A DNA stretch of 55,987 nucleotides from Planctomycetaceae bacterium (GCA_947453375.1 CANGGT010000003.1:1-55987), one strand, 5' to 3'. Shown: positions 34,089 through 46,390, counted from the stretch's first letter. The notes: generated by a model not told the origin, from the sequence alone. Numbers and translations are program-made.

Positions 34089-36860
34089 TCACCAGGTCTT
34101 GCCGAGGGCGGCCTGAGCCGCCGCCAGCCGGGCGACCGGCAGGCGGAACGGCGAGCAGCTGACGTAATCCAGACCGAGGTGGTGGCAGAAGAGCACCGAG
34201 TGGGGATCGCCACCATGCTCGCCGCAGATGCCGAGCTTGATGTCGGGCCGCGTCTTCCGCCCCTTCTCGACGGCGGTCTGCATGAGCGAGCCGACGCCGG
34301 TGGTGTCGATCGAGGCGAACGGGTTCGCCTTGAAGATCCCGAGGTCGGTGTACTTCTGCAGGAAGGAGCCCATGTCGTCGCGGCTCATGCCGAGGCAGGT
34401 CTGGGTGAGGTCGTTGGTGCCGAAGCTGAAGAACTCGGCGCTCTCGGCGATCTCGTCGGCCGTGAGGGCGCCGCGCGGGATCTCGATCATCGTGCCGACG
34501 AGATACTTCACCTTGATGCCCGTCTCCTTCGCCACCTGAGCCGCCGTGGCGTGGACGATCTCGAGCTGGTTGTCGAGTTCCTTCTTGAAGCCCACGAGCG
34601 GGATCATGATCTCCGGCTTCACCTTGATGCCGGCCTTCTGAACCTTCGCGGCCGCCTCGAACACGGCCCGGGCCTGCATCTCGGAGATCTCGGGGTAGCT
34701 GACGCCGAGGCGGCAGCCACGGTGGCCGAGCATCGGGTTGAACTCGTGGAGCGCCTCGACGCGGCGGTGGACGACCTCGACGGGAAGCTTGAGCTTCTTC
34801 GCCAGATCGGCCTGGGCCTTCTCGTCGTGCGGCACGAACTCATGGAGCGGCGGGTCGAGGAAGCGGATCGTGGCCGGGCGGCCGTCGAGGGCCCGGAAGA
34901 TCCCCTCGAAATCGTCGCGCTGGTAGGGAAGGAGCTTCGCGAGGGCCGCACGGCGGGCGTCGAGCGACTCGGCGAGGATCATCTCCCGCATCGCGTCGAT
35001 CCGGTTGCCCTCGAAGAACATGTGCTCCGTCCGCGTCAGGCCGATCCCCTCGGCACCGAAGGCGATCGCGTGCCGGACCTGCTCCGGGGTGTCGGCATTC
35101 GTGCGGATGCCGAGCTTCCGGTGCTTGTCGGCAAGCTTCATGATGAAGGCGTAGTACTGGTAGACCTCCGAGTCTTCCGGCTTCATCGTGTTGGTGACGA
35201 GCACCTGCTTGAGCTCGCTGTCGGCGGTCTTGATGGCGCCCGCGAACACCTCGCCGGTGCTCCCGTTGATGGAGATGTCCTCTCCCTCCTTGAGCGTCGT
35301 CGAGCCGCAGACGAGCGTCCCCTTGGCGTAATCGATGGAGATCGCGCCGGCACCGGCCACGCACACCTTGCCCATCTGCCGGGCGACGAGGGCAGCGTGG
35401 CTGGAAACACCACCGCGGCTGGTGAGGATGCCCTCGGCCGCGATCATGCCACGGAGATCCTCTGGGCTCGTCTCGACGCGGGCGAGAACGACCTTCTTCC
35501 CCTTCTCGGCGAGCTCCTCGGCCTTGGCGGCCGAGAAGACGAGCTGCCCGGTGGCTGCACCGGGGCCGGCGGCCAGGCCGGTCGTCAGCACGCGGCCCGA
35601 CTTCTTCGCCTTTTCGTAGTCGGCCCGGTCGAAGATCGGGGCGAGGAGCTGCGAGAGGGCATCCGGATCGGCGCTCTGGATGGCGTGCTCCGGGGTCATG
35701 AGCTTCTGCTTGACCATGTCGTGGGCGATCTTCACGTACGCCAGCGCCGTCCGCTTTCCGTGACGGGTCTGGAGCATGTAGAGCTTCTTCTTCTCCACCG
35801 TGAACTCGAAGTCCTGGACGTCGCCGAACTTCTTCTCGAGCTTCTCGCGGACCTTCTCGAGCTGCTTGTAGGTGGCGGCGAACTCGGTGTCGTGGGCCAT
35901 TTCGACGACCGGCTTCGGCGTGCGGACGCCGGCCACGACGTCTTCGCCCTGGGCGTTGACGAGGTATTCGCCGTAGAAGACGTCCTCGCCGGTGGCCGGG
36001 TCGCGGGTGAAGGCCACGCCGGTGGCGCAGTCATCGCCCATGTTGCCGAACACCATGCTCTGAACGTTGACGGCGGTGCCCCACTCGTCGGGGATCTTGT
36101 ACTTGCGACGGTAGATGATCGCCCGCTCGTTCATCCAGCTGCCGAAGACGGCCGTGATGGCTCCGATGAGCTGCTCGAAGGGATCCTGCGGGAAGGTCTT
36201 CCCGGTGCGCTCCTTGATGAGCTTCTGGAAGCGGCTGATGAGATCCTTGAGGTGATCCTCGGTGAGGGCGGTGTCTTCCTCGACGTGGGCCTGGTGCTTG
36301 ACCTTCTCCATCACCTCTTCGAACGGGTCGTGCTCGTTCTCGTGGCGCTTCTGCACGCCCATGACGACGTCGCCATACATCTGGATGAAGCGGCGGTAGG
36401 AGTCGAAGGCGAAGCGGCCGTTGCCGGTGGCCTTTTTGAGCCCTTCGACGGTCTTGTCGTTGAGGCCGAGGTTGAGGATCGTGTCCATCATGCCCGGCAT
36501 GCTGTCGCGGGCACCGGAGCGTACGCTCACCAGGAGTGCGTTGGCCGGGTCGCCGAACTTCTTCCCGGTCTCCTTCTCGAGCATCTTCACGTAGTGGGCG
36601 ATCTCCTCCTCGAGCCCCTTGGGAAACTTCTTCCCCGAGGTGTAGTAGTCGATGCACATCTGCGTCGTGATCGTGAATCCCGGAGGAACCGGAAGCCCGA
36701 TCTTCGTCATCTGCGCGAGGTTGGCCCCCTTGCCACCGATGATCGCCTTCATGGTGCCGTCGCCGTCGCACCGGTCGGCGCCGAAGTAATAGATCATCCG
36801 CCCTGGCTTGGACGCGGCGGGCTTCTTGGCGGCGGACTTCTTCGCGGACGATTTGGCCAT
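34089..36860 (-). CDS. ppdK: Pyruvate, phosphate dikinase
   Basis: [46 protein letters not shown] and [10 protein letters not shown]; start ATG 36860. Confidence 0.98.
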
Positions 36861-36922
36861 GGGGGCGACGTGACCTTTCGGGGAGGGGGAAACCTGCGGA
36901 AAAAAGGGTCTAAGCCGCGTCG

Positions 36923-36951
36923 AATCTACGTTCACGTTTCCCGGGCGTCAA
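36923..36951 (-). promoter_or_regulatory. Sigma70-type promoter for ppdK
   Basis: Minus-strand TTGACG-17 nt-TAGATT. Confidence 0.55.
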
Positions 36952-37114
36952 CGCGGCGCCCCGGCGGGATGGCGGCCGGCGGGCGGGAGGGCTTCTGCCG
37001 CCGCAAACGGCTCGTTTTCCAGGAGTCGCGGTGGACCCGCGCGAGGGGGGATGGCGGCTTTCCGGGCGGGCGGCCTGCCGGGGCCGTGGCGATTTCCCCG
37101 CCGTCGGAGCACCG

Positions 37115-38239
37115 TCAGCCCCCCTGCCCCGCCGCGTCGGCCCGGCGGATCGCCTCCTCCACCATCCCGGCCGTCACCGGGAACGGCTCGTTGTGCGTCA
37201 CCTCGCCCGGCTGCACCGCGCGCTCCGCGATCCGGCTGAGCATTGCCCCGTCGATGTCACCGAGACCGATTTGACCGAGCGTCACCGGCAAGCCGACCGA
37301 TCGGCAGAAGGCGACGACCTCGTCGATCTCTCCGGCCGGCGCATCCTCGAGGCAGAGCTGGGCGAGCGTTCCGAAGGCGACTTTCTCCCCGTGGAGCGCG
37401 GCGTGGCAACCGGGGGCGACCGTCAAACCATTGTGGATCCCGTGGGCAGCCGCCAGCCCCGCCGATTCGAAGCCGAGCCCTGAAAGAAGCGTGTTGGCCT
37501 CCACGATCCGCGCGAAGGCCCCTCGCGCCTCGGCGTCGAGCGTGCCGGCGCCATCGAGTTGCCCTGCCCGGTGGGCAGCGATCGCCAAAGCGCCATCCGC
37601 CCGCAGCGTCGTCCAGCAGAGCTCGGCAAGGGCGAGCGCGGCGCGGGTCGTCGTTCCGCCACGGCTGTGGGTCGCGCCCGATCGGGCGCAGGCCCGAGCC
37701 TCGAACCAGGTCGACAGCGCATCCCCCATCCCCGCCACGAGGTAGCGGTCGGGCGCGGCAAGGATGACGTCGGTGTCGACGAGGACGAGGGCGGGGTTTT
37801 GCGGATGGAGCCTCACCTCCTCGACAACGCCTGAGTCGCTGTAGACGACGGAGATCGCGCTGGTCGGTGCGTCGGTCGAAGCGATCGTCGGGCAGGAGAC
37901 GATGTCGAGATCGAGCTCTGCGGCCACCGCGCGGGCCGTGTCGATCGCCTTCCCGCCCCCCGCCCCGACGATCGTCCGCGCCGAGAGGCGCCTCGCCACA
38001 TCGGCCACCGCGGCGATCTCGCGCCGGGAACATTCGCCGCCGAAGGGATGGATGACAGGGGCGAAGCCGGCGGTCTCGAGCGACTGCTCCCAGATCGCGC
38101 CGAGCCTCCGGATTGCCGAGGCACCGGCGAGGACGAGCACCGGCCCTCCGAGGCCGAGCCGCGTCATCTCGTCCCCGAGCGTGGCCGCCACCCCCGGCCC
38201 CTGCACGTATCGCGCCGGCGCCGCAAATATCTCGGCCAT
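37115..38239 (-). CDS. gldA: Glycerol dehydrogenase
   Basis: P.RYVQG, GGGKAIDTA, PTIASTDAPTS, GLAAAHGIHNG and HGEKVAFG. Confidence 0.93.
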   Translation of the reverse strand: MAEIFAAPARYVQGPGVAATLGDEMTRLGLGGPVLVLAGASAIRRLGAIWEQSLETAGFAPVIHPFGGECSRREIAAVADVARRLSARTIVGAGGGKAIDTARAVAAELDLDIVSCPTIASTDAPTSAISVVYSDSGVVEEVRLHPQNPALVLVDTDVILAAPDRYLVAGMGDALSTWFEARACARSGATHSRGGTTTRAALALAELCWTTLRADGALAIAAHRAGQLDGAGTLDAEARGAFARIVEANTLLSGLGFESAGLAAAHGIHNGLTVAPGCHAALHGEKVAFGTLAQLCLEDAPAGEIDEVVAFCRSVGLPVTLGQIGLGDIDGAMLSRIAERAVQPGEVTHNEPFPVTAGMVEEAIRRADAAGQGG

Positions 38240-38332: not shown

Positions 38333-41300
38333 TCATTCCGACGTGCCGAGCCAGCGGTCGATGATCGTGTCGATGGCGCCATCCTCCTTCATCGTCAGGA
38401 TCACAGCGTTGAACCGCTCGCGGAGCGGGCTCCCTGGCGGCACGACGATCCCGAAGTCGAACGACTCAAAGACGGGCCCCACCAGCCGATAGTTCGATCG
38501 ACCAGGCCGCGAGATCGCATGACGCAGGGTTTGGTTCTCGGCGACGATGGCCTCCACCTCCCCGGCGTCGGCCGCTGCGAACACCTCGTCGAAGGTGCGA
38601 TATTCCATCGGGATACCGCTGCGGGCGCGGATCGCCGGCCCCGAGACGCCAGTGGCCTGCGTGCCGATCACCCGGCCGGCCATGTCGCGCGGCCCGTGGA
38701 TCGCTCCCCCGATCCGTTCGGCGGTGAGCGTCGCCGCAAGGCTTCCGGTGAATAGCGCGATGAGCACCGTTCCGACGAGCATCCACGCTGTCGCCAGGAT
38801 CCGCCCTGGCACCGTGTCGACATGCTTGTCGTCGCAGCCACTGGCGATCAGCGTGCTGATCCCCCACCACGTCCCCTCCCACACGCCCCGCCGCCAGTCG
38901 CGGGGAAAACTCTTCTCGTTGACGCCGCGCTCGCACCACCAGAGCACATGCCCCACGAGTACCGTGAGGAGGATGAGCCCGGCAAGCAACTGCAGGGCGT
39001 CACGCGTGAACAGGATCGAAAGCGGAGCGAGATAGGGATCGTCGTCGGTCTTCGGCACCGCGATTCTCAAGCCCGAATGGAACACCGAGTGGGTGAAGTC
39101 GAACTCAGCCTCCCGCTCGCGCGTCATCGCCACCGGCCCGAGGAACAGATCGGCCTCCCCCCGTCGTAAGGCCTCGAGGCCCTCGGCGAGCGAGTCCTTG
39201 ATGATGTACTCGGTGGTCACGCCGAGCCGAAGCGTCATGTCGTCCCACATGTCGACCGATGGCCCTGTCGGCTTGCCGTCGGTGATCCCGAGCGTCACTC
39301 CCACCGGCGCGACGCCGACCCGAAGCGTTTCAGCAGCGGAGACCGAGTCGCCGTCACCACTGGCCAGACACGCCGCAAACAAGAGCGTGGTTACGGCGGC
39401 TCCGCGCCGCCCCCAGGTCGCCGCAGCCACAAGCATTCCTCCGAGAGCGAGCAGTCCAAACGCCGCCGGCAGCACGCCGGCCGGGAGTGTTGTCGAGGCC
39501 CCGGTGGCCAGCGCCTCCATGCCCCCCTCGGCCACGCCCCCGCCGGCAAGCGCCAGGAGAAGCAGCGGCATCGTGTTGTGGACGGAGTGGAGCACGATCG
39601 CCGGGAGGATGCTTCCCGTGGCGACACGCAGCACGCCAGCCACGATCCCGAGGGAAAAGGTCGCCGGCATCCGCTCCGGGAGGAGATGGGCCGCGGCGAA
39701 CAAGGCCGCCTGGACAACGACCGCGACCGCGAGCCGCCTCCGCGTCGGCCGTTCGCCGGAGAGCGCCGAGAGGAGCCAGCCACGGAAGAGCAGCTCCTCG
39801 GCCACCGGAGGCACAAGTGCCATGAGCGTCCACGACACCCACCAGGGATGCTGCTGGATGAGGCCAATGAGCCGCTCGGAAAGGCTGCGGATCGCCGGCG
39901 AGACCTCCGTCCCCTGCAGCGCGAGCATCACCGCAGCGGAGACGATGAACAATCCCGCCCCGAGGCTCGCCGCCCCCAGGGCCGCCGCCACGGCCCGGCC
40001 CGCCGAGCAGGGAACGCCAAGGCCGAGCGTTCGCACGACATCAACCCGCTGCCAGGCGAGCATCGCCAGCAGCGGCAGGACCACGGCCACCCCCTGATGG
40101 ATCGGGATGCCCAAGAGGAGATTTTCCGGCGTGAGGGCTTGGACATACCAAAGGGCCGCCAGCCCCACCACGACCGGAATGATTCCCTGGGGGATGGTCG
40201 GGACGATGCGCGGGGCCGGCCGGCTGAGGACCCCGGCAGCGGCATCGGGCCCGCGGAAGAGGATCTCCTCGTCGGTGAGCAAATGCGCGGTGCCGCGGAG
40301 CAGCAGCGCCGTCAGGACGGCCGATGAGAGGAGCGTGAGGAGGAGAGGGAGGAGTGCCTGAATGATCCCTCCGCCGCTGTTGTCCGGGGTGCCTGTGAGG
40401 ATGTCGCGGGCCACCATCACCTGTCCTGTGAACGGCACGAGCGCCAGGGGGCCGTCGCCGCGGAGCCCCGGCACGAGCGCCGTGCCGGCCAGCGCCGCGA
40501 CGAGGAGGATCACCGGCGTGAGGGTGTTCTGCGCTTCCTTGCCACTCTTCGACGCGGTCGTCACCGCCAGGCAGGTCGCCGCGGCGAGCGCCGCCAGACC
40601 GACGAACGCGATCACGGTCACCACGGCCCCGGCCCCCAGCGAGGGGAGATGAGAGGCAGCGCCGGCCGGGAGGAAGCGGAGGCCAACGGCACTGGTCAGG
40701 GCGATCGAGAGGCAATTGGCCGCGAGCGTCGCGAGGGTCACGGCGTAGACGGCGAGGAACTTCCCGAACACGATGCTGCCGGTGCTGCACGGGGCCATGA
40801 GGAGCGTCTCGATCGTTCCCCGCTCCTTCTCGCCGGCGATCGCGTCGATGGCCGGATAGAAGGCGCCGGTCATCGTCAGAACGGCCAGAAGAACGAGGAT
40901 CGATGCGGTGAGCGCGGGGAGGATCTTCTCGGTGGCCACCGTCGGGGCACCGGATGTCTCCCCGAGGATCCGAAGGCGGATCGGCCGGAGGACGCTCTCC
41001 GGCAACCCGGCCCGGCTCACCCGGCCGGCGCGGATCGTCTCGGCGACGCCGCGGATCACCCCCTCGAACTGCTCCCGCGAGCGCCCGATCGCGCGCCGCG
41101 AGGGGAAACGGACGTCGAGGTCGACCGTCCCTTGGGCGTCGAGGGCCGCGACGATTCCTTCCGGGGCATCGACCCAAACGTCGGCGGCTCCGTCCTCGAC
41201 TGCCGCGATGGCCGTTTCGACGTCGCCGTGGAGGAAGAAGGTGCTCGAAGGCCAGGAAGCGTCTCCGCCACCGGCCGGCTTTCCCCCTTTCACCACTCCA

Positions 41301-41575
41301 TCGATCCTGGCGGCGAGCGCCCCGGCATCCGCGCCGCTCATCGCCACCGTGAGCGGCGTCGGTGCGGCACGGGCCTCGAGATCGGTGACGGCGGTGCGGA
41401 CGCCGAGGGCACTGGAGAGCGCGACCAGCGGATAGGTGACCATCGGGAGGAGGAGCGTGACAAACAGCGTCCTCCGGTCGCGGATGAACTCCAGCAGGTC
41501 GCGCCGGGCGATCGCCACGGCCGCACCGAGCGGGGAGTTCACGGCAGCGTCGGGCATGGAGGAAGGAGCGGTCAT
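38333..41575 (-). CDS. Fusion: NatB-like ABC permease + CPBP (CAAX/Abi) intramembrane metalloprotease + GluR0-like ligand-binding/ion-channel module
   Basis: IRDRRTLF and AIDAIAGEKERGTIETLL (NatB); EELLFRG, FAAAH and HSVHN (CPBP); SBP-M1-pore-M2-SBP at the C-terminus. ATG overlaps the upstream ATPase stop (ATGA). Confidence 0.85.
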   Translation of the reverse strand: MTAPSSMPDAAVNSPLGAAVAIARRDLLEFIRDRRTLFVTLLLPMVTYPLVALSSALGVRTAVTDLEARAAPTPLTVAMSGADAGALAARIDGVVKGGKPAGGGDASWPSSTFFLHGDVETAIAAVEDGAADVWVDAPEGIVAALDAQGTVDLDVRFPSRRAIGRSREQFEGVIRGVAETIRAGRVSRAGLPESVLRPIRLRILGETSGAPTVATEKILPALTASILVLLAVLTMTGAFYPAIDAIAGEKERGTIETLLMAPCSTGSIVFGKFLAVYAVTLATLAANCLSIALTSAVGLRFLPAGAASHLPSLGAGAVVTVIAFVGLAALAAATCLAVTTASKSGKEAQNTLTPVILLVAALAGTALVPGLRGDGPLALVPFTGQVMVARDILTGTPDNSGGGIIQALLPLLLTLLSSAVLTALLLRGTAHLLTDEEILFRGPDAAAGVLSRPAPRIVPTIPQGIIPVVVGLAALWYVQALTPENLLLGIPIHQGVAVVLPLLAMLAWQRVDVVRTLGLGVPCSAGRAVAAALGAASLGAGLFIVSAAVMLALQGTEVSPAIRSLSERLIGLIQQHPWWVSWTLMALVPPVAEELLFRGWLLSALSGERPTRRRLAVAVVVQAALFAAAHLLPERMPATFSLGIVAGVLRVATGSILPAIVLHSVHNTMPLLLLALAGGGVAEGGMEALATGASTTLPAGVLPAAFGLLALGGMLVAAATWGRRGAAVTTLLFAACLASGDGDSVSAAETLRVGVAPVGVTLGITDGKPTGPSVDMWDDMTLRLGVTTEYIIKDSLAEGLEALRRGEADLFLGPVAMTREREAEFDFTHSVFHSGLRIAVPKTDDDPYLAPLSILFTRDALQLLAGLILLTVLVGHVLWWCERGVNEKSFPRDWRRGVWEGTWWGISTLIASGCDDKHVDTVPGRILATAWMLVGTVLIALFTGSLAATLTAERIGGAIHGPRDMAGRVIGTQATGVSGPAIRARSGIPMEYRTFDEVFAAADAGEVEAIVAENQTLRHAISRPGRSNYRLVGPVFESFDFGIVVPPGSPLRERFNAVILTMKEDGAIDTIIDRWLGTSE

Positions 41576-42309
41576 TCGGGGCGGGCCTCCCCGATCGCGG
41601 CGAAGAACGCCTCCTCGAGTCCGCCCGACTGGCCCACGAACGCCTCGCGCGTCCCTGCGGCGACCACCCGGCCACCATGGATGACGACGAACCGATCGCA
41701 GCGGCTTTCGATCTCGTGGAGCCGGTGGCTGGAGAGGAGGATCGCCCGACCGTCGCCGCGGAGATCGGCGAGGAAGGCGAGCAGATCGCGGGCCCCGACG
41801 ACATCGAGCGCGTTGGTCGGTTCGTCGAGGATCAGGGCCGGCGGATCGTGGACGAGTGCCCTGCCGACGCTGACCCGCTGCCGTTGCCCCGACGAGAGCC
41901 GGCCGGCGGGGCGGTCGGCGCACCCGGCGAGGTCGAGGACGTCGATGAGTCGGGCGACCCGGGCCTCGAGGGCTTCACCGCGGAGGCCGTGGAGCGCGCC
42001 GAAGGAATGGAGAATCTCGCGGGCCGAGAGGCGGTCGGGGACGCCGGTGGTGGCCGAGACGTAGCCGAGCCGGCGGCGAGCCCCGACGGGGTCGGTGGCG
42101 ACGTCGCAGCCACCGACACGGGCCGTTCCGGAGGTCGGTGTGAGCAGCGTGGCGAGCATCCGCAGGGTCGTCGTCTTGCCCGCCCCGTTGGCGCCGAGGA
42201 GCCCGACCATCTCGCCGGCGTTCACCGCGAACGACACCCCATCGACCGCCCGCACGATCACTCCCGAGGAGGAGCGGTAGTGCTTGACGAGATCCTGCAC
42301 CTCGATCAT
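41572..42309 (-). CDS. NatA-like ABC transporter ATP-binding protein
   Basis: GANGAGKTT, LSSGQRQRV, ILDEPT and SSH; translationally coupled to the NatB-like gene. Confidence 0.9.
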   Translation of the reverse strand: MIEVQDLVKHYRSSSGVIVRAVDGVSFAVNAGEMVGLLGANGAGKTTTLRMLATLLTPTSGTARVGGCDVATDPVGARRRLGYVSATTGVPDRLSAREILHSFGALHGLRGEALEARVARLIDVLDLAGCADRPAGRLSSGQRQRVSVGRALVHDPPALILDEPTNALDVVGARDLLAFLADLRGDGRAILLSSHRLHEIESRCDRFVVIHGGRVVAAGTREAFVGQSGGLEEAFFAAIGEARPE

Positions 42310-42310
42310 C

Positions 42311-43135
42311 TCAGCTCTCCTCGCTCGGGGGGAACTGCCGCCATTCGAGGATCGCCACGGCGATGGCGAGAAACACGGCCGCGAGGATGAACACAGCGGT
42401 CACTTGGGCCCACGGGGGGCGGTCGTCGATGAGGAGCTGGAGTTCCGGGGTGACCGACCCCCGCCAGCCCATCCAGCGGACAAGGAGCGTGTGGAGGCGG
42501 AGCGAGACGGTGAGCTGGTTGACCACCGCCGGGATCAGGCCGGCAAGGTATTCCACCACGAGGGCTACCCCGACGCTGGCGACGAGCGACCGCTTGGGGA
42601 CGATCACCGCCGGGAGCGAAAAGAGCGCGGCCCGGCCGATGCACGACAGGACAACGAGGATCGCGAACGGGCTGAAGAGGCTCAAGCCTCGGTCGATCGC
42701 GCCGGTCAACAGGGCGAGGAGCAGGCCGGAGAGCGCCACCGCGCCGGTCCAGAGCACGGCAGCCAGCCATGTCCCCAGGAGCAGCGATCGCCGTCCGCCG
42801 GGGCGGACGGCGACATGGACCCAGGTGCCGCGCTCGAGCTCGTCGGCGACCGCCGGGGAGATCGTGACGAGCAGCCCGAGCATGCACACCGCCTCGGGCA
42901 CGAGCGCGTAAAGGAGGATTGCCCCGAGATCGTGCTCGAGCAAGTCGCCCCGGGCCTTCGCCGCCGCCAGGAGCACGGCGGAGGGAAAGATGACGCCGAT
43001 CGCCGCCAGGGCGAGCCGGGGGGGCGTGAGGAGCCGATCGATCTGGAAGCGGGCCACCGCCACGATCGCCGCCAGGGCGGGGAGTGGTGGCGATTCGCCC
43101 GGTTGTCGATCCGTTGAGCGGCGTTGGTCGGTCAT
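42311..43135 (-). CDS. ABC-2 type permease
   Basis: About 6 TM helices, VADELERGTW motif and operon context. Confidence 0.75.
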   Translation of the reverse strand: MTDQRRSTDRQPGESPPLPALAAIVAVARFQIDRLLTPPRLALAAIGVIFPSAVLLAAAKARGDLLEHDLGAILLYALVPEAVCMLGLLVTISPAVADELERGTWVHVAVRPGGRRSLLLGTWLAAVLWTGAVALSGLLLALLTGAIDRGLSLFSPFAILVVLSCIGRAALFSLPAVIVPKRSLVASVGVALVVEYLAGLIPAVVNQLTVSLRLHTLLVRWMGWRGSVTPELQLLIDDRPPWAQVTAVFILAAVFLAIAVAILEWRQFPPSEES

Positions 43136-44061
43136 GGCGTCACCCCACGGTGGAGCTGGACGAGCCGACCGAAGATCCCCTCGAGCGACCGGTCGCCCGG
43201 AACGAGCTCGCGGACGAGGATCCCCTCGCCGATCGCCGCCTGCCCGATCCTCTCCGCCAGGAGTCGCGGGGCCCGCGTGTCGACGACGAAGGTGTCATGG
43301 CCGACGAACCGAACCGCTTCCGCCTCGGGGCATACGCAGGCCAGCTCCGCCAGCCTCCGTGGCGCGGTCGAGACGACGCGCACCTCCGAGGGGAGCGTGT
43401 CGATGAGTTGGCGGATCTCGTGGACGGTGCCGCTGGCGACCAATCTCCCGCCGAGGATCACGGCCAGCCCCGCCTGGAGCGCCTCCACTTCATGGAGGAG
43501 ATGACTGGCCACGAGCAGGCTTCTTGACCGCGCCCAGGTGCGCACGAGCGACACGAGCTCGTGGCGGGCGACCGGATCGAGGCCGTCGAACGGCTCGTCG
43601 AGGACGAGGAGATCGGGGTCGTGGGCGATGGCGCCGGCGAGTTTCGCGCGTTGCCGCATTCCCTTCGACAGGGTCGAAAGCGGCCTTCCGGCCGCCTCGC
43701 CGAGCCCCACCTGCTCGAGGGTCCTGTTGGCCCGCTTCAGCGCCGCGACGGGGGTGAAGCCCGAGAGCTGGACGAGGTAGGTGACCCATTCCCGCGGCGT
43801 GGCGGAGCGTTCCGTGAGGTCGGAGGCAGGGCAGTAGCCGATCCGACGCAGCACCCGGGCGTTGAAGAAGGGGCGCTCCCCGAACACACGGACCTGGCCG
43901 ATCGAGGGACGGAGCTGGCCGGTGACGAGGCCGAGGAACGTCGTCTTCCCGGCGCCGTTGGGGCCGAGGAGCCCATAGGCGCCCGCGCCGAGCTCGACCG
44001 TGACATCGTTGACGCCGATGACGGAGCCGTAAAGCTTGGTGACGTGGGTCAGGGAGATCAT
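43132..44061 (-). CDS. ABC transporter ATP-binding protein
   Basis: GPNGAGKTT, LSKGMRQR, VLDEP and SH. Confidence 0.93.
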   Translation of the reverse strand: MISLTHVTKLYGSVIGVNDVTVELGAGAYGLLGPNGAGKTTFLGLVTGQLRPSIGQVRVFGERPFFNARVLRRIGYCPASDLTERSATPREWVTYLVQLSGFTPVAALKRANRTLEQVGLGEAAGRPLSTLSKGMRQRAKLAGAIAHDPDLLVLDEPFDGLDPVARHELVSLVRTWARSRSLLVASHLLHEVEALQAGLAVILGGRLVASGTVHEIRQLIDTLPSEVRVVSTAPRRLAELACVCPEAEAVRFVGHDTFVVDTRAPRLLAERIGQAAIGEGILVRELVPGDRSLEGIFGRLVQLHRGVTP

Positions 44062-44100: not shown

Positions 44101-45345
44101 TCAGACGCGGGCGGGGGCGTCGACACGCCACCAGAGGACGAGGGCCGAGACGATCGACACCAGTCCCAGCGAGAGCAGGGGGGGAAAGATCGCCTGCCAG
44201 CGACGCTCGATGCCGAACACCCAGGCCTGGATCACGCCGAGGGAATGATAGGGGGAGATCCAGGCCCAGCGATCGATCGTGTCGTCGAGCCCGGTGGCCC
44301 GGGAGAGCCAGCGGAACTGCATGACGTTGCGCTGCCGGCCACCTTGCGGCCCGCGCCCCTCGATGAGATCGGCGAGGCTCTCCCCGATCTCCCCCCCCGG
44401 CCCCATCGGTCGGACTTTGCTGCGGCGGGAACGTCTGGGGGCATCCTCAACCGAGAACCCACCGTCAGAAGCACGCGAGGGATCGGCGGTTTGAGCGTTC
44501 GCGCCCGCGCGGATCTCCTCGTGCGCCTGCTGCATCATGTCGGCGGTGGTCAGTGACGCGTGGGCGATCCAACAGGCGGCCCAGGTGGCAAACCAGGCGA
44601 AGCTTGCGATACGGCTCTCGGCGGTGAGCGACGAGTAGGCCAGCGCCATGAAGACCGTGGGAATGGCCAGCGCCAGGCTGGCGACGATGATCCTCACAGG
44701 CAGATCCCACGTCGTTACCGCCACCCAGATGCTCGGGCTCACCGCCACCCCCGCCACCCACAGCGCCAGCGCCGGCAGCATCGTGATCGAGGCAACGAGA
44801 AGGCCGAGAATGAGGAGTTTTCCGGCGACGTACTCGAACTTCCCCACTGGGCGCGTGAAGTAGATCAGCCAGGCCTTCGCCCGCAGATCGCGCGACACCA
44901 GCGCCGGCGCCACCAGCCCTACCACGATCGCCAGGAGGATCGCCTGAGGCGAACGCATGAAGGCGAGCATCAGCCGCGACCAGACGGCCCGGCGCGTCCG
45001 GTCGGCCTCCTCCTCGCGGGTCTCATGCGGATCGGCCGGAGCGGCGTCGGTCTGGCCGAGCGCGTCGGCGATCGCCCGTCCGAGGATCCCCACGCCGTCG
45101 ACGTTGCGGCCGACGCGGGCCCGGTCCTGGATCGACCCCAGCCGTCCCTCGTCGATCGCCTGCTCGAAGACGAAGAAGCTCCCGGCGAACACCAAGGCCG
45201 GGCTCCAGGCGAAGAACACGGCCCGGCGCAGCCAGCGGCTCGTCCACGCCAGCTTGATGCCGGTGGCGGCGATGACGAGGATCGCGGCGAGCGAGCCGGA
45301 ACGCTTCCCCTGCCAGGGGCGGTAGCCGACGTCATGGAGCGGCAT
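44101..45345 (-). CDS. ABC-2 type permease
   Basis: GYRPWQG N-terminus, LVSRDLR...IYFTRPV...YVAGK and TM helices. Confidence 0.8.
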   Translation of the reverse strand: MPLHDVGYRPWQGKRSGSLAAILVIAATGIKLAWTSRWLRRAVFFAWSPALVFAGSFFVFEQAIDEGRLGSIQDRARVGRNVDGVGILGRAIADALGQTDAAPADPHETREEEADRTRRAVWSRLMLAFMRSPQAILLAIVVGLVAPALVSRDLRAKAWLIYFTRPVGKFEYVAGKLLILGLLVASITMLPALALWVAGVAVSPSIWVAVTTWDLPVRIIVASLALAIPTVFMALAYSSLTAESRIASFAWFATWAACWIAHASLTTADMMQQAHEEIRAGANAQTADPSRASDGGFSVEDAPRRSRRSKVRPMGPGGEIGESLADLIEGRGPQGGRQRNVMQFRWLSRATGLDDTIDRWAWISPYHSLGVIQAWVFGIERRWQAIFPPLLSLGLVSIVSALVLWWRVDAPARV

Positions 45346-46390
45346 GGAGAGACTCCGGCGGGGGCGCCTGGGCGGCCTGGAGGGCCTCGAGAAACACCTC
45401 CTCGAAAGGGCGGCAGGAAGCTTTGAGCGAGCTGACCCGGATGCCGAGTTGGTTCACCTCCGACCACATGCCGGCAAGCGCCTCAGGCGCAGCGAGCTGG
45501 AGCAGGACCACCCCCTCGTGCGCCCCGTCCCCCGGCGTCACGGTCTCGACGGTGGCGGAGAATCGGCCGGCCGCTCCGGCCGCGGAGGGGAAGAGATCGA
45601 GCGGCCGGGCACGCCGGGCTGGGATCCCGCGGGCGATGAGGCGGCGGACGAACTCGTCGACCGGCCCGGTGACTTCGAGCCGCTCCTCCGGGATCGCCGG
45701 CTGGGTCAGCTCCCGGATCGAGCCGGTCAACCGCACCCGGCCTCCGGCGAGGACGATCACGCGCTCGCAGATCGATTGCACGTCGGGGAGGACATGGGTG
45801 GAGACGAGGATCGTCTTGCCGTGGTCGCGGGCGAGCGTGGTGAGCCGGCCGAGCATCGCCCGCCGCTCGATCGGATCGAGGCCGTTGGTCGGCTCGTCGA
45901 GGATCACCATCCGCGGGTCGTGGACGATTGCCGCGGCAAACGAGATCTTCTGTTTCATCCCCACCGAGAGCGTCTCCACCGGGCGGTAGCGCTCCTGGCC
46001 GGCGTCGCACCAATCAAGCACCTCGTGCGCTCGACGGAGCGATTCGATCCCGGGGATCCCGGAGAGTTGAGCCGCGTAGCGCACCATCTCCACCCCGGAG
46101 AGCCCCGGCACGGAGCATTCGTCCTCCGGGACGACGCCGACGAACCTGCGCACGGCATGGGGACTGCGGCGCGGATCGAGCCCGAACACGCGCACGCTCC
46201 CTTCGGCGAGGCGCACGAGGCCGAGGATCGCTTTGACCAGCGTGCTCTTGCCGGCCCCGTTGGGCCCGACGAGCCCGGTGATGCCCGGGTGGACGGTGAG
46301 CGACACGCGGTCGAGGACCGTGCGCTTCCCGTACCGCTTGACGATCCCCGTGGCCTGCACCGGCTCTTCCACGGACGACGATCGGCTCAT
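45332..46390 (-). CDS. ABC transporter ATP-binding protein
   Basis: GPNGAGKST, LSVGMKQK, ILDEPTNGLDP and STH. Confidence 0.93.
   Translation of the reverse strand: MSRSSSVEEPVQATGIVKRYGKRTVLDRVSLTVHPGITGLVGPNGAGKSTLVKAILGLVRLAEGSVRVFGLDPRRSPHAVRRFVGVVPEDECSVPGLSGVEMVRYAAQLSGIPGIESLRRAHEVLDWCDAGQERYRPVETLSVGMKQKISFAAAIVHDPRMVILDEPTNGLDPIERRAMLGRLTTLARDHGKTILVSTHVLPDVQSICERVIVLAGGRVRLTGSIRELTQPAIPEERLEVTGPVDEFVRRLIARGIPARRARPLDLFPSAAGAAGRFSATVETVTPGDGAHEGVVLLQLAAPEALAGMWSEVNQLGIRVSSLKASCRPFEEVFLEALQAAQAPPPESLHAAP

Follow-up and report, generated by a model that had tools for sequence, protein, structure and literature searches.

A planctomycete gene that joins an ABC-2 permease, a CPBP-type protease and a glutamate receptor-type channel subunit in one conserved frame

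Analysis of a 55,987-nucleotide (nt) stretch of DNA from Planctomycetaceae bacterium, a freshwater planctomycete (GCA_947453375.1 CANGGT010000003.1:1-55987; the whole stretch is called the window below), confirmed that the gene at 38333..41575 on the minus strand is a genuine and conserved fusion of an ATP-binding cassette type 2 (ABC-2) permease, a CPBP protease and a complete subunit of the ionotropic glutamate receptor (iGluR) type. A preliminary description of this DNA, which left the strand unstated, had proposed such a triple fusion coupled to an ABC ATPase gene, and both proposals held. The gene, the final one of an ABC cluster, is a single frame of 1080 amino acids (aa) plus the stop codon, in which the Pfam families follow one another in the order ABC-2, CPBP and SBP_bac_3/Lig_chan, and its ATG at 41575 overlaps the stop codon of the ATPase gene as ATGA. 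A longer open reading frame (38333..41923) starts at a GTG; since the 116 codons at its beginning fall within the ATPase gene, read in a different frame, and since homologues of the fused protein start at the same place as the ATG at 41575, which shares the ATGA overlap, the 1080-aa start was adopted. Judging from its sequence, the protein is probably an amino-acid-gated cation channel that works with the ABC-2/CPBP unit in one pathway or complex.

The Pfam matches on the window protein were ABC2_membrane_2 (aa 21-361, 1e-17), ABC2_membrane_3 (aa 225-426), the Rce1-like/CPBP family PF02517 (aa 578-669, 2.8e-20) and SBP_bac_3 (aa 764-1077, 6e-19), the last interrupted by Lig_chan (aa 867-966, 4.6e-12), which exceeds its gathering score, while Ion_trans_2 (1.5e-3) stayed below the cut-off. 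In addition, NCBIfam NF041647, a family with the same succession of an ABC-2 permease and a CPBP domain, aligned over nearly its full length (aa 20-674 against model positions 6-634 of 636, E 1e-113). All parts of the gene are given here in minus-strand order. According to Pfam, NF041647, the AlphaFold model and hydropathy, the ABC-2 permease part (40256..41575, aa 1-440) consists of a first transmembrane (TM) helix, a periplasmic alpha/beta domain (aa 59-204) and five further TM helices. It is followed by the CPBP (Rce1-like) glutamic-type intramembrane protease part (39410..40255, aa 441-722) with eight TM helices, in which the motifs EExxxR (EELLFR, 39782-39799), FxxxH (FAAAH, 39686-39700) and HxxxN (HSVHN, 39575-39589) are intact where they had been reported before. 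A joint of 26 aa (39332..39409, aa 723-748), composed of an Arg-Arg basic cluster, about 15 uncharged residues and a small/acidic linker, leads into the S1 lobe of the ligand-binding domain (39032..39331, aa 749-848), which carries P814, T818 and R821 (codon 39113-39115, within the S1 sequence MTRERE at 39110-39127); the earlier placement of the S1 start near 39331 and of a carboxylate-binding Arg motif (GPVAMTRERE) was thus correct. The membrane domain of the channel (38711..39031, aa 849-955) runs as M1, pore helix/loop and M2, with the pore motif SGCDD at 38828-38842 and a gate-like FTGSLAATLT, and the S2 lobe (38336..38710, aa 956-1080), with E1013 at 38537-38539, completes the protein, which has no M4.

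Several lines of evidence make it scarcely credible that this frame is an assembly chimera, a frameshift hiding a stop codon or a decaying pseudogene. Runs that contain parts of the stretch belong to 10 metagenome studies of freshwater, lake, estuary and related habitats; the best-matching run, possibly the source sample, was excluded from the independent count, and no RNA data set was listed among the runs. A contig of one independent run (X3 record 1) spans 38333-39583 with 0 differences and another (X8 record 26) spans 39074-39778 with 15 substitutions and 0 gaps; neither lists an insertion or deletion at the joint, where no stop codon or frameshift occurs. Moreover, the frame is uninterrupted in at least 53 genomes of five genera and in 41 of 42 database proteins, and its catalytic, ligand-binding and pore residues are conserved. 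What speaks for an artefact is the fragmented, metagenome-type assembly (334 contigs), a frame change within a C-run at the joint of a congener (G015), which shows no stop-start logic and reflects an assembly error or else a recent break, and two genomes of genus g3 in which the fused gene carries 6 and 3 in-frame stops (G100, C302:5738-8506; G127, C210:3554-5062) and may be a pseudogene or poorly assembled.

The architecture is widespread in the family of the window organism. Among 151 genomes from 12 genera of this family, in which the state of the locus was read by hand, the five genera with the fused frame contributed 15/17 (g1), 1/1 (g6), 18/20 (g8), 17/21 (g3) and 2/6 (g7) genomes, so that the preliminary description's concern that close relatives might always encode the channel as a separate gene did not materialize. 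The two halves were adjacent separate genes in 37 further genomes from four genera (g4, 22/43; g28, 11/16; g9, 2/12; g5, 2/4), adjacency being defined as the same contig and strand, different frames and a channel match beginning 100-270 nt past the permease-protease match; five of these 37 were checked at the sequence level. The 42 database proteins that match the C-terminal module measure 594-1890 aa, and the only one that does not combine ABC-2, CPBP, SBP_bac_3 and Lig_chan is a 602-aa piece without the ABC-2 part. A search of 1.84 billion representatives at 50% identity returned, among the best 150, two further full-length fused proteins (P0044 and P0045), two joint-spanning pieces checked with Pfam (P0048 and P0055) and a third, putative one (P0061), the remainder being permease-proteases alone, channels alone or shorter pieces of either. 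In other families of the order, searched with the same query, 15 of 16 sampled yielded only the two-part permease-protease (about 730-830 aa) and the sixteenth gave no match; one K+-type channel was present elsewhere in this sample, away from the permease-protease. Fused proteins are already deposited in public databases under generic names such as 'transporter substrate-binding domain-containing protein', and our literature search found no paper on the fused architecture or on the function of planctomycete ABC-2/CPBP proteins, and no experimental work on the NF041647 family.

To assess conservation, 32 full-length fused proteins were aligned (A2): that of the window, 29 taken from the 42 database proteins and the two full-length representatives, with identities to the window protein down to 43%. 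The CPBP residues E593, E594, R598, F626, H630, H663 and N667, which make up the three motifs, are invariant in 32/32, as are G913, C914, K917 and E1013 of the channel, and the ligand-site residues P814, T818 and R821 are retained in 31, 30 and 29 of the 32 proteins, respectively. The joint behaves differently: its identity to the window is 81-96% in the three closest fused proteins and 4-35% in the other 28 of 31, against 34-100% for the modules. Together, the conservation of the modules and the drift of the joint indicate that all three modules are under selection and that the joint is merely a linker.

By several measures of sequence and fold, the channel half belongs to the glutamate receptor superfamily. 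Searched against PDB sequences, the last 380 aa matched best the bacterial iGluR ligand-binding domain 2pyy (2.4e-22) and next the AMPA receptors GluA1-4 (about 1e-14), the latter in one continuous alignment that covers S1, M1, the pore loop and M3 and reaches into S2. Within this alignment, 'gpvamtreRE' of S1 is paired with 'apltitlvRE' of GluA, 'asgCDdk' of the pore with 'qqGCDis', 'ialfTgsLAAtLTaeR' of the gate with 'issYTAnLAAfLTveR' and 'vaEnq' of S2 with 'llEst'. The S1 Pro/Thr/Arg and the S2 Glu, whose roles are known from AMPA-receptor structures as holders of the alpha-carboxylate and alpha-amino groups of the ligand, are therefore all in place. A model of aa 701-1080, folded together with 67 standalone relatives, reached a predicted local distance difference test score (pLDDT) of 90.3 and a predicted template modelling score (pTM) of 0.75, and Foldseek placed AMPA-receptor chains covering the ligand-binding and transmembrane domains at the top (E 6e-24, TMq 0.57-0.61); the full-length model found the same AMPA-receptor targets. 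Pfam, models and fold match thus agree on the layout of the iGluR/GluR0 superfamily, a solute-binding-protein (SBP)-type domain split by M1, a re-entrant pore loop and M2. Features of the eukaryotic type were missing or incomplete, as there is no amino-terminal domain, the SYTANLAAF gate is only partly kept (FTGSLAATL), and M4 is absent because the protein ends right after S2, the last helix of which stops 4 residues before the C-terminus in the models. The resemblance to AMPA receptors comes with only about 19-20% identity, lack of an amino-terminal domain, M4 and cytoplasmic tail, a location in a bacterial inner membrane and, opposite the two Gln that precede GCD, small residues (Ala/Thr, then Ser/Gly) in the fused proteins.

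The earlier designation of this module as GluR0-like was apt for its layout and inaccurate for its pore. GluR0 of Synechocystis is K+-selective, with a TXXTVGYG-type filter, and has no amino-terminal domain, M4 or C-terminal domain (excerpts of PMC6385376). The window protein shares with it the minimal S1-M1-P-M2-S2 layout and a periplasmic SBP-type clamshell with an amino-acid-binding Arg/Glu pair; it differs in that 748 residues (permease, protease and joint) precede S1, whereas GluR0 is a standalone protein with a signal peptide, and in that its pore reads SGCDDK in place of the K+ filter. The signature T-x-x-T-V-G-Y-G is absent from the window pore loop, which has S-T-L-I-A-S-G-C-D-D-K at that position, with SGCDDK aligned to the QQGCD of AMPA receptors. 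On the alignment, then, the window pore is of the GCD type seen in AMPA receptors and not a GluR0 K+ filter. Of 68 aligned relatives, 33 bore a K+ signature of the GYG/GFG form and 19 a different loop, and the remaining 16 had GC[D/E], these 16 being the window, four family-relative loci and 11 library proteins; 12 of the 16 are standalone proteins (three read in their genome context and nine library proteins). A non-K+ pore of this kind fits the 'Group 2' of Ger et al. (2010), which the excerpts of that study (PMC2950845) describe as prokaryotic proteins of the S1-2TM-S2 type that have no K+-like P region and stand nearest to eukaryotic iGluRs, and to which the standalone GGC[D/E] relatives found here may be compared as well; according to the same excerpts, none of its members had an ABC-transporter domain.

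Two further observations concern relatives of this channel. In G017, a standalone gene for a GGCDNK-type channel of the same clade (L017; G017:C17, 1108-6052) lies 87 nt downstream of MCP-cheR-cheB on the same strand, a context that hints at a chemosensory role for the GCD-type channel. Besides, four proteins (P0102, P0129, P0132 and P0179) and one piece (P0154) are iGluR-type channels with an OpuAC (glycine-betaine-type) domain N-terminal to S1, in the position of the amino-terminal domain of eukaryotic receptors, and four of the five (P0102, P0129, P0132 and P0154) have a K+-type pore with an Ion_trans_2 match. The earlier statement that GluR0-type channels are normally standalone is therefore mostly true, although fusions with OpuAC exist too. 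Like the window protein, these are bacterial iGluR-type channels with an N-terminal addition; unlike it, the addition is a second periplasmic binding domain and not a membrane enzyme or transporter, and the channel is of the K+ type in 4/5.

The split relatives indicate what the joint once was. In G024 the halves are separate genes, the permease-protease ending in a basic tail just past its last helix; the ATG of the channel gene overlaps the stop codon as ATGA, AAGGAGG lies 5-7 nt upstream, and the channel begins with a typical signal peptide. The same ATGA overlap, again with a signal peptide on the channel, was seen at the split junctions of G124 (g4), G052 (g28) and G075 (g9), whereas in G055 (g5) a gap of 30-42 nt separates the genes and the channel also has its own signal peptide; the overlap was thus present in 4/5 of the split junctions examined at the sequence level. 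The stop codon and the ATG of the signal peptide-bearing channel fall exactly at the position of the window joint, and the order found there (last helix, Arg-Arg, about 15 uncharged residues, small/acidic linker, S1) repeats the layout of the split form. Because split relatives place the channel signal peptide at the same spot, the 26-aa joint can be identified, from sequence comparison, as the former Sec signal peptide of the channel. Likewise, the presence of ATGA-overlapping split pairs with a channel signal peptide in sister genera makes a frame change in a translationally coupled gene pair the apparent origin of the fusion.

This history was explored with quick IQ-TREE trees on chosen subsets. 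Thirteen of the 44 fused database proteins entered both trees; 17 locus translations and 14 of the 63 channel-only representatives brought the channel tree to 44 rows, and 15 locus translations with 10 of the 53 permease-only representatives brought the permease-protease tree to 38. The channel-linked sequences formed one clade in each tree (SH-aLRT 100), with 30 rows in the channel tree (25 fused, one split and four alone) and 31 rows in the permease-protease tree (25 fused, one split and five without a channel), the latter clade being long-branched. Both trees showed the same subclades, which implies that the halves travelled together. Grouping the 25 fused rows as a single clade, a group named after the tree had been seen, was rejected (delta lnL 332, p-AU 3e-140), and the supported branches require at least three switches between the fused and the split state within the family. 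The trees give no direction to these changes; since the ATGA overlap is common to three split genera, an ancestral coupled pair followed by repeated fusion would be favoured over fission.

The membrane arrangement bears on whether the joint still acts as a signal peptide. The full-length AlphaFold model (pLDDT 74.8, pTM 0.44) places 14 membrane helices ahead of the joint, of which the ABC-2 part contributes six and the CPBP part eight, and a reading of hydropathy together with the model gathers Lys/Arg in loops that would be cytoplasmic if the N-terminus is inside. The predicted topology therefore has the N-terminus inside, 14 helices, the basic cluster inside, the former signal peptide running outward and the clamshell in the periplasm; the end of helix 14 on the inside fits the basic tail that closes the permease-protease in the split form, and a periplasmic S1 means that the joint must cross the membrane from inside to outside. 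As the joint keeps signal-peptide-like features and might be cut, the physical coupling in the mature protein that the preliminary description envisaged may not hold. The protein could instead be a polyprotein whose joint is cleaved behind by signal peptidase after insertion, so that the channel subunit is set free and the ABC-2/CPBP protein retains an additional hairpin at its C-terminus, in which case the fusion would fix merely 1:1 synthesis and co-insertion, an outcome compatible with channel function.

We regard this polyprotein alternative as possible but doubtful. It is consistent with the homology of the joint to a real signal peptide in the split relatives and with the retention, in all fused lineages examined (13 g1 loci and one locus from each of four other genera), of the three-part signal-peptide layout despite 4-35% identity, namely a basic cluster, about 15-22 uncharged residues and an end rich in Ala/Gly/Ser, after which comes a linker that is acidic or rich in Pro. 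In the window joint, moreover, the hydrophobic core of about 15 residues is short for a stable membrane helix, and the joint has a pLDDT of 35-46 in the full-length model. A precedent exists in the Bradyrhizobium cytochrome b-c1 precursor FbcH, which our literature search did not return and which is cut at an internal signal sequence. On the other hand, the (-3,-1) rule is too permissive for cleavage to be judged by eye, the aa 701-1080 model, built on a deeper alignment, turns the joint into a helix (pLDDT 58-72) continuous with TM14, and, should cleavage render the fusion neutral, some other cause would have to account for its having appeared repeatedly and persisted for so long in five genera. 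A candidate internal start that would give the channel its own signal peptide was also considered at minus strand 39425-39445 (aa 710-716), where GGAGG is followed after 7 nt by an in-frame GTG (V714); this arrangement occurs in 8/13 g1 loci, all close kin, and is absent from G006, G002, G012, G009 and G015, while other fused genera have only weaker look-alikes, so that it is probably due to chance.

For an amino-acid-gated channel acting with the ABC-2/CPBP unit, we infer the ligand class, conduction, selectivity and stoichiometry as follows. Four channel halves would assemble into one tetrameric pore in the inner membrane; binding of a periplasmic alpha-amino acid would close the clamshell and open the pore; the opened pore, with GCD-D/N-K in place of T-V-G-Y-G, would be permeable to cations without being K+-selective; and the channel would share a pathway, and probably a membrane assembly, with the ABC-2/CPBP unit and its ATPase. 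It could be argued instead that the iGluR module is a non-conducting sensor: its clamshell would detect a periplasmic amino acid, or something that the protease or exporter produces, and pass the signal via M1/M2 to the neighbouring CPBP/ABC-2 helices, thereby regulating proteolysis or transport. In favour of such a sensor are the covalent link of the channel to a 14-helix enzyme/transporter and the differing symmetries established for the two families, tetrameric for the pore and dimeric for the ABC-2 permease. We nevertheless consider it quite improbable, given that the 32 fused homologues show no or hardly any variation in the pore helix and the G-C-D/E-D/N-K loop, that conservation is highest in the membrane domain for 17 of the 20 rows with 70-86% permease-part identity to the window (82-96%, against 73-97% for S1), and that the same pore type recurs in the standalone relatives, where only a channel role makes sense.

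Some results weigh against a channel that functions jointly with the ABC-2/CPBP unit. The full-length model shows no confident packing between the modules (pTM 0.44) and does not build the joint as a membrane helix, and the pairing of a tetrameric pore with a presumably dimeric permease requires that four chains of about 18 helices fit together. The NF041647 score of the window protein (381.4 bits) is below the curated cut-off of 435; compared with that family, the channel-linked proteins also form their own long-branched clade, and the window protein has 400 more residues. R821 is replaced in 3/32 fused homologues. Furthermore, the channel is unlinked in six genomes (G017, G020, G072, G051, G077 and G041) and can therefore also work alone, while 38 of the 151 family genomes have no channel match at E <= 1e-40. 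The whole-protein query matched 148/151 of these genomes, including 35 of the 38 without a channel, so that the ABC-2/CPBP unit evidently works without it; G019 and G063 (97% complete), for example, have the permease-protease operon and no channel match at E <= 1e-40. In G007, of the same genus as the window (94% complete), the search gave only weak matches to the CPBP stretch (best E 1.7e-10), and neither the fused gene nor a channel-linked permease-protease was found. The pairing of channel and permease-protease is thus frequent yet dispensable. A complex prediction of the CPBP part (aa 441-722) with the channel module (aa 749-1080), with a score of 0.00 and a mark of 0.32, is evidence neither way.

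The neighbouring genes bear on the nature of the transporter. Upstream of the fused gene on the minus strand lie its translationally coupled ABC ATPase (41572..42309, 245 aa; ABC_tran 3e-30, DrrA-subfamily-like below the cut-off), a 274-aa membrane protein (42311..43135), a second ABC ATPase (43132..44061, 309 aa; ABC_tran 5e-23), an ABC-2-like permease (44101..45345; ABC2_membrane_2 6e-5, below the cut-off) and a third ABC ATPase (45332..46390; ABC_tran 5e-28). The 274-aa protein had no Pfam or NCBIfam match and is probably an ABC-2 permease, considering its Atlas look-alikes (0.97), with PF12679 in 35-54% of cluster members, and the weak ABC2_membrane_2 match of its G021 orthologue. The six genes form three tandem ATPase/permease pairs with spacings that range from overlaps of 4 nt and 14 nt to a gap of 39 nt. 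The four-gene run of ATPase, 274-aa protein, ATPase and permease-protease gene recurs in G021, where the last gene is fused, and in G019, which has no channel; in the split G024, the coupled ATPase is directly upstream and the open reading frame scanned beyond it had no Pfam match.

The preliminary description had suggested a NatB-like permease and a cation exporter within a candidate sensing or ion-homeostasis system; in its specific form this would be a pump-leak device in which amino-acid-gated cation influx is paired with an ATP-driven Na+ exporter of the NatAB type. The acidic pore residues, the missing K+ filter, the ATPase gene and the Joint Genome Institute (JGI) name of the homologue P0039, 'ABC-type Na+ efflux pump permease subunit', would agree with such an arrangement. 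The NatB label is a putative one that goes back to this COG-style name of one homologue, which we take to be annotation transfer from B. subtilis NatB, and to general ABC-2 Pfam families, and no NatB-specific model matched in the NCBIfam scan of the window protein. Since, in addition, the ATPase is nearest to the DrrA subfamily, below its cut-off, and the device leaves the CPBP protease without a role even though its catalytic motifs are invariant, we find it highly improbable.

Other searches on the locus returned little. A role in defence found no support: PADLOC did not match the fused protein and reported just generic ATPase similarity among its neighbours. A PDB sequence search with aa 1-722 returned nothing useful, and among the Foldseek matches shown for the full-length model there were only AMPA-receptor chains and no structural relative of the ABC-2/CPBP part. 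Downstream, on the minus strand at 34089-38239, are genes for a pyruvate phosphate dikinase (948 aa) and a dehydrogenase of the Fe-ADH family (374 aa), with no obvious link to the ABC cluster.

A bolder extension of the joint channel function, which we consider unlikely, would make the ABC-2/CPBP unit an obligate partner, in effect an auxiliary subunit, of the channel, such that four fused chains with about 70 membrane helices would form a single amino-acid-gated pore without K+ selectivity, surrounded by a pair of ATP-driven ABC-2 dimers and by four intramembrane proteases. If this were true, a periplasmic ligand would control ion flux jointly with ATP-driven export or proteolysis, or else the pore would be gated by the transport cycle, and the repeated independent fusion of the ATGA-coupled pair would be the footprint of that complex.

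Overall, the modules themselves were known; the novelty lies in their conserved union, in the captured signal peptide and in the occurrence of a GCD-type pore in a bacterial clade that has a fixed partner. The origin of synaptic receptors is judged against bacterial relatives of glutamate receptors, hardly any of which has a described cellular role. To this picture the present clade adds a GCD-type pore and a fixed genetic partner, fused to the channel in five genera and encoded by a touching gene in four more, and with the partner, the operon and the ligand-binding domain in hand the role becomes directly testable. To our knowledge, and in line with the lack of any such report in our literature search, the protein would be the first known ligand-gated channel coupled to an ABC transporter or an intramembrane protease if its parts form one machine. 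The family also illustrates cleanly, in a natural case, how a signal peptide can become an internal joint, and makes it testable whether bacteria produce two membrane proteins from one frame through cleavage by signal peptidase.

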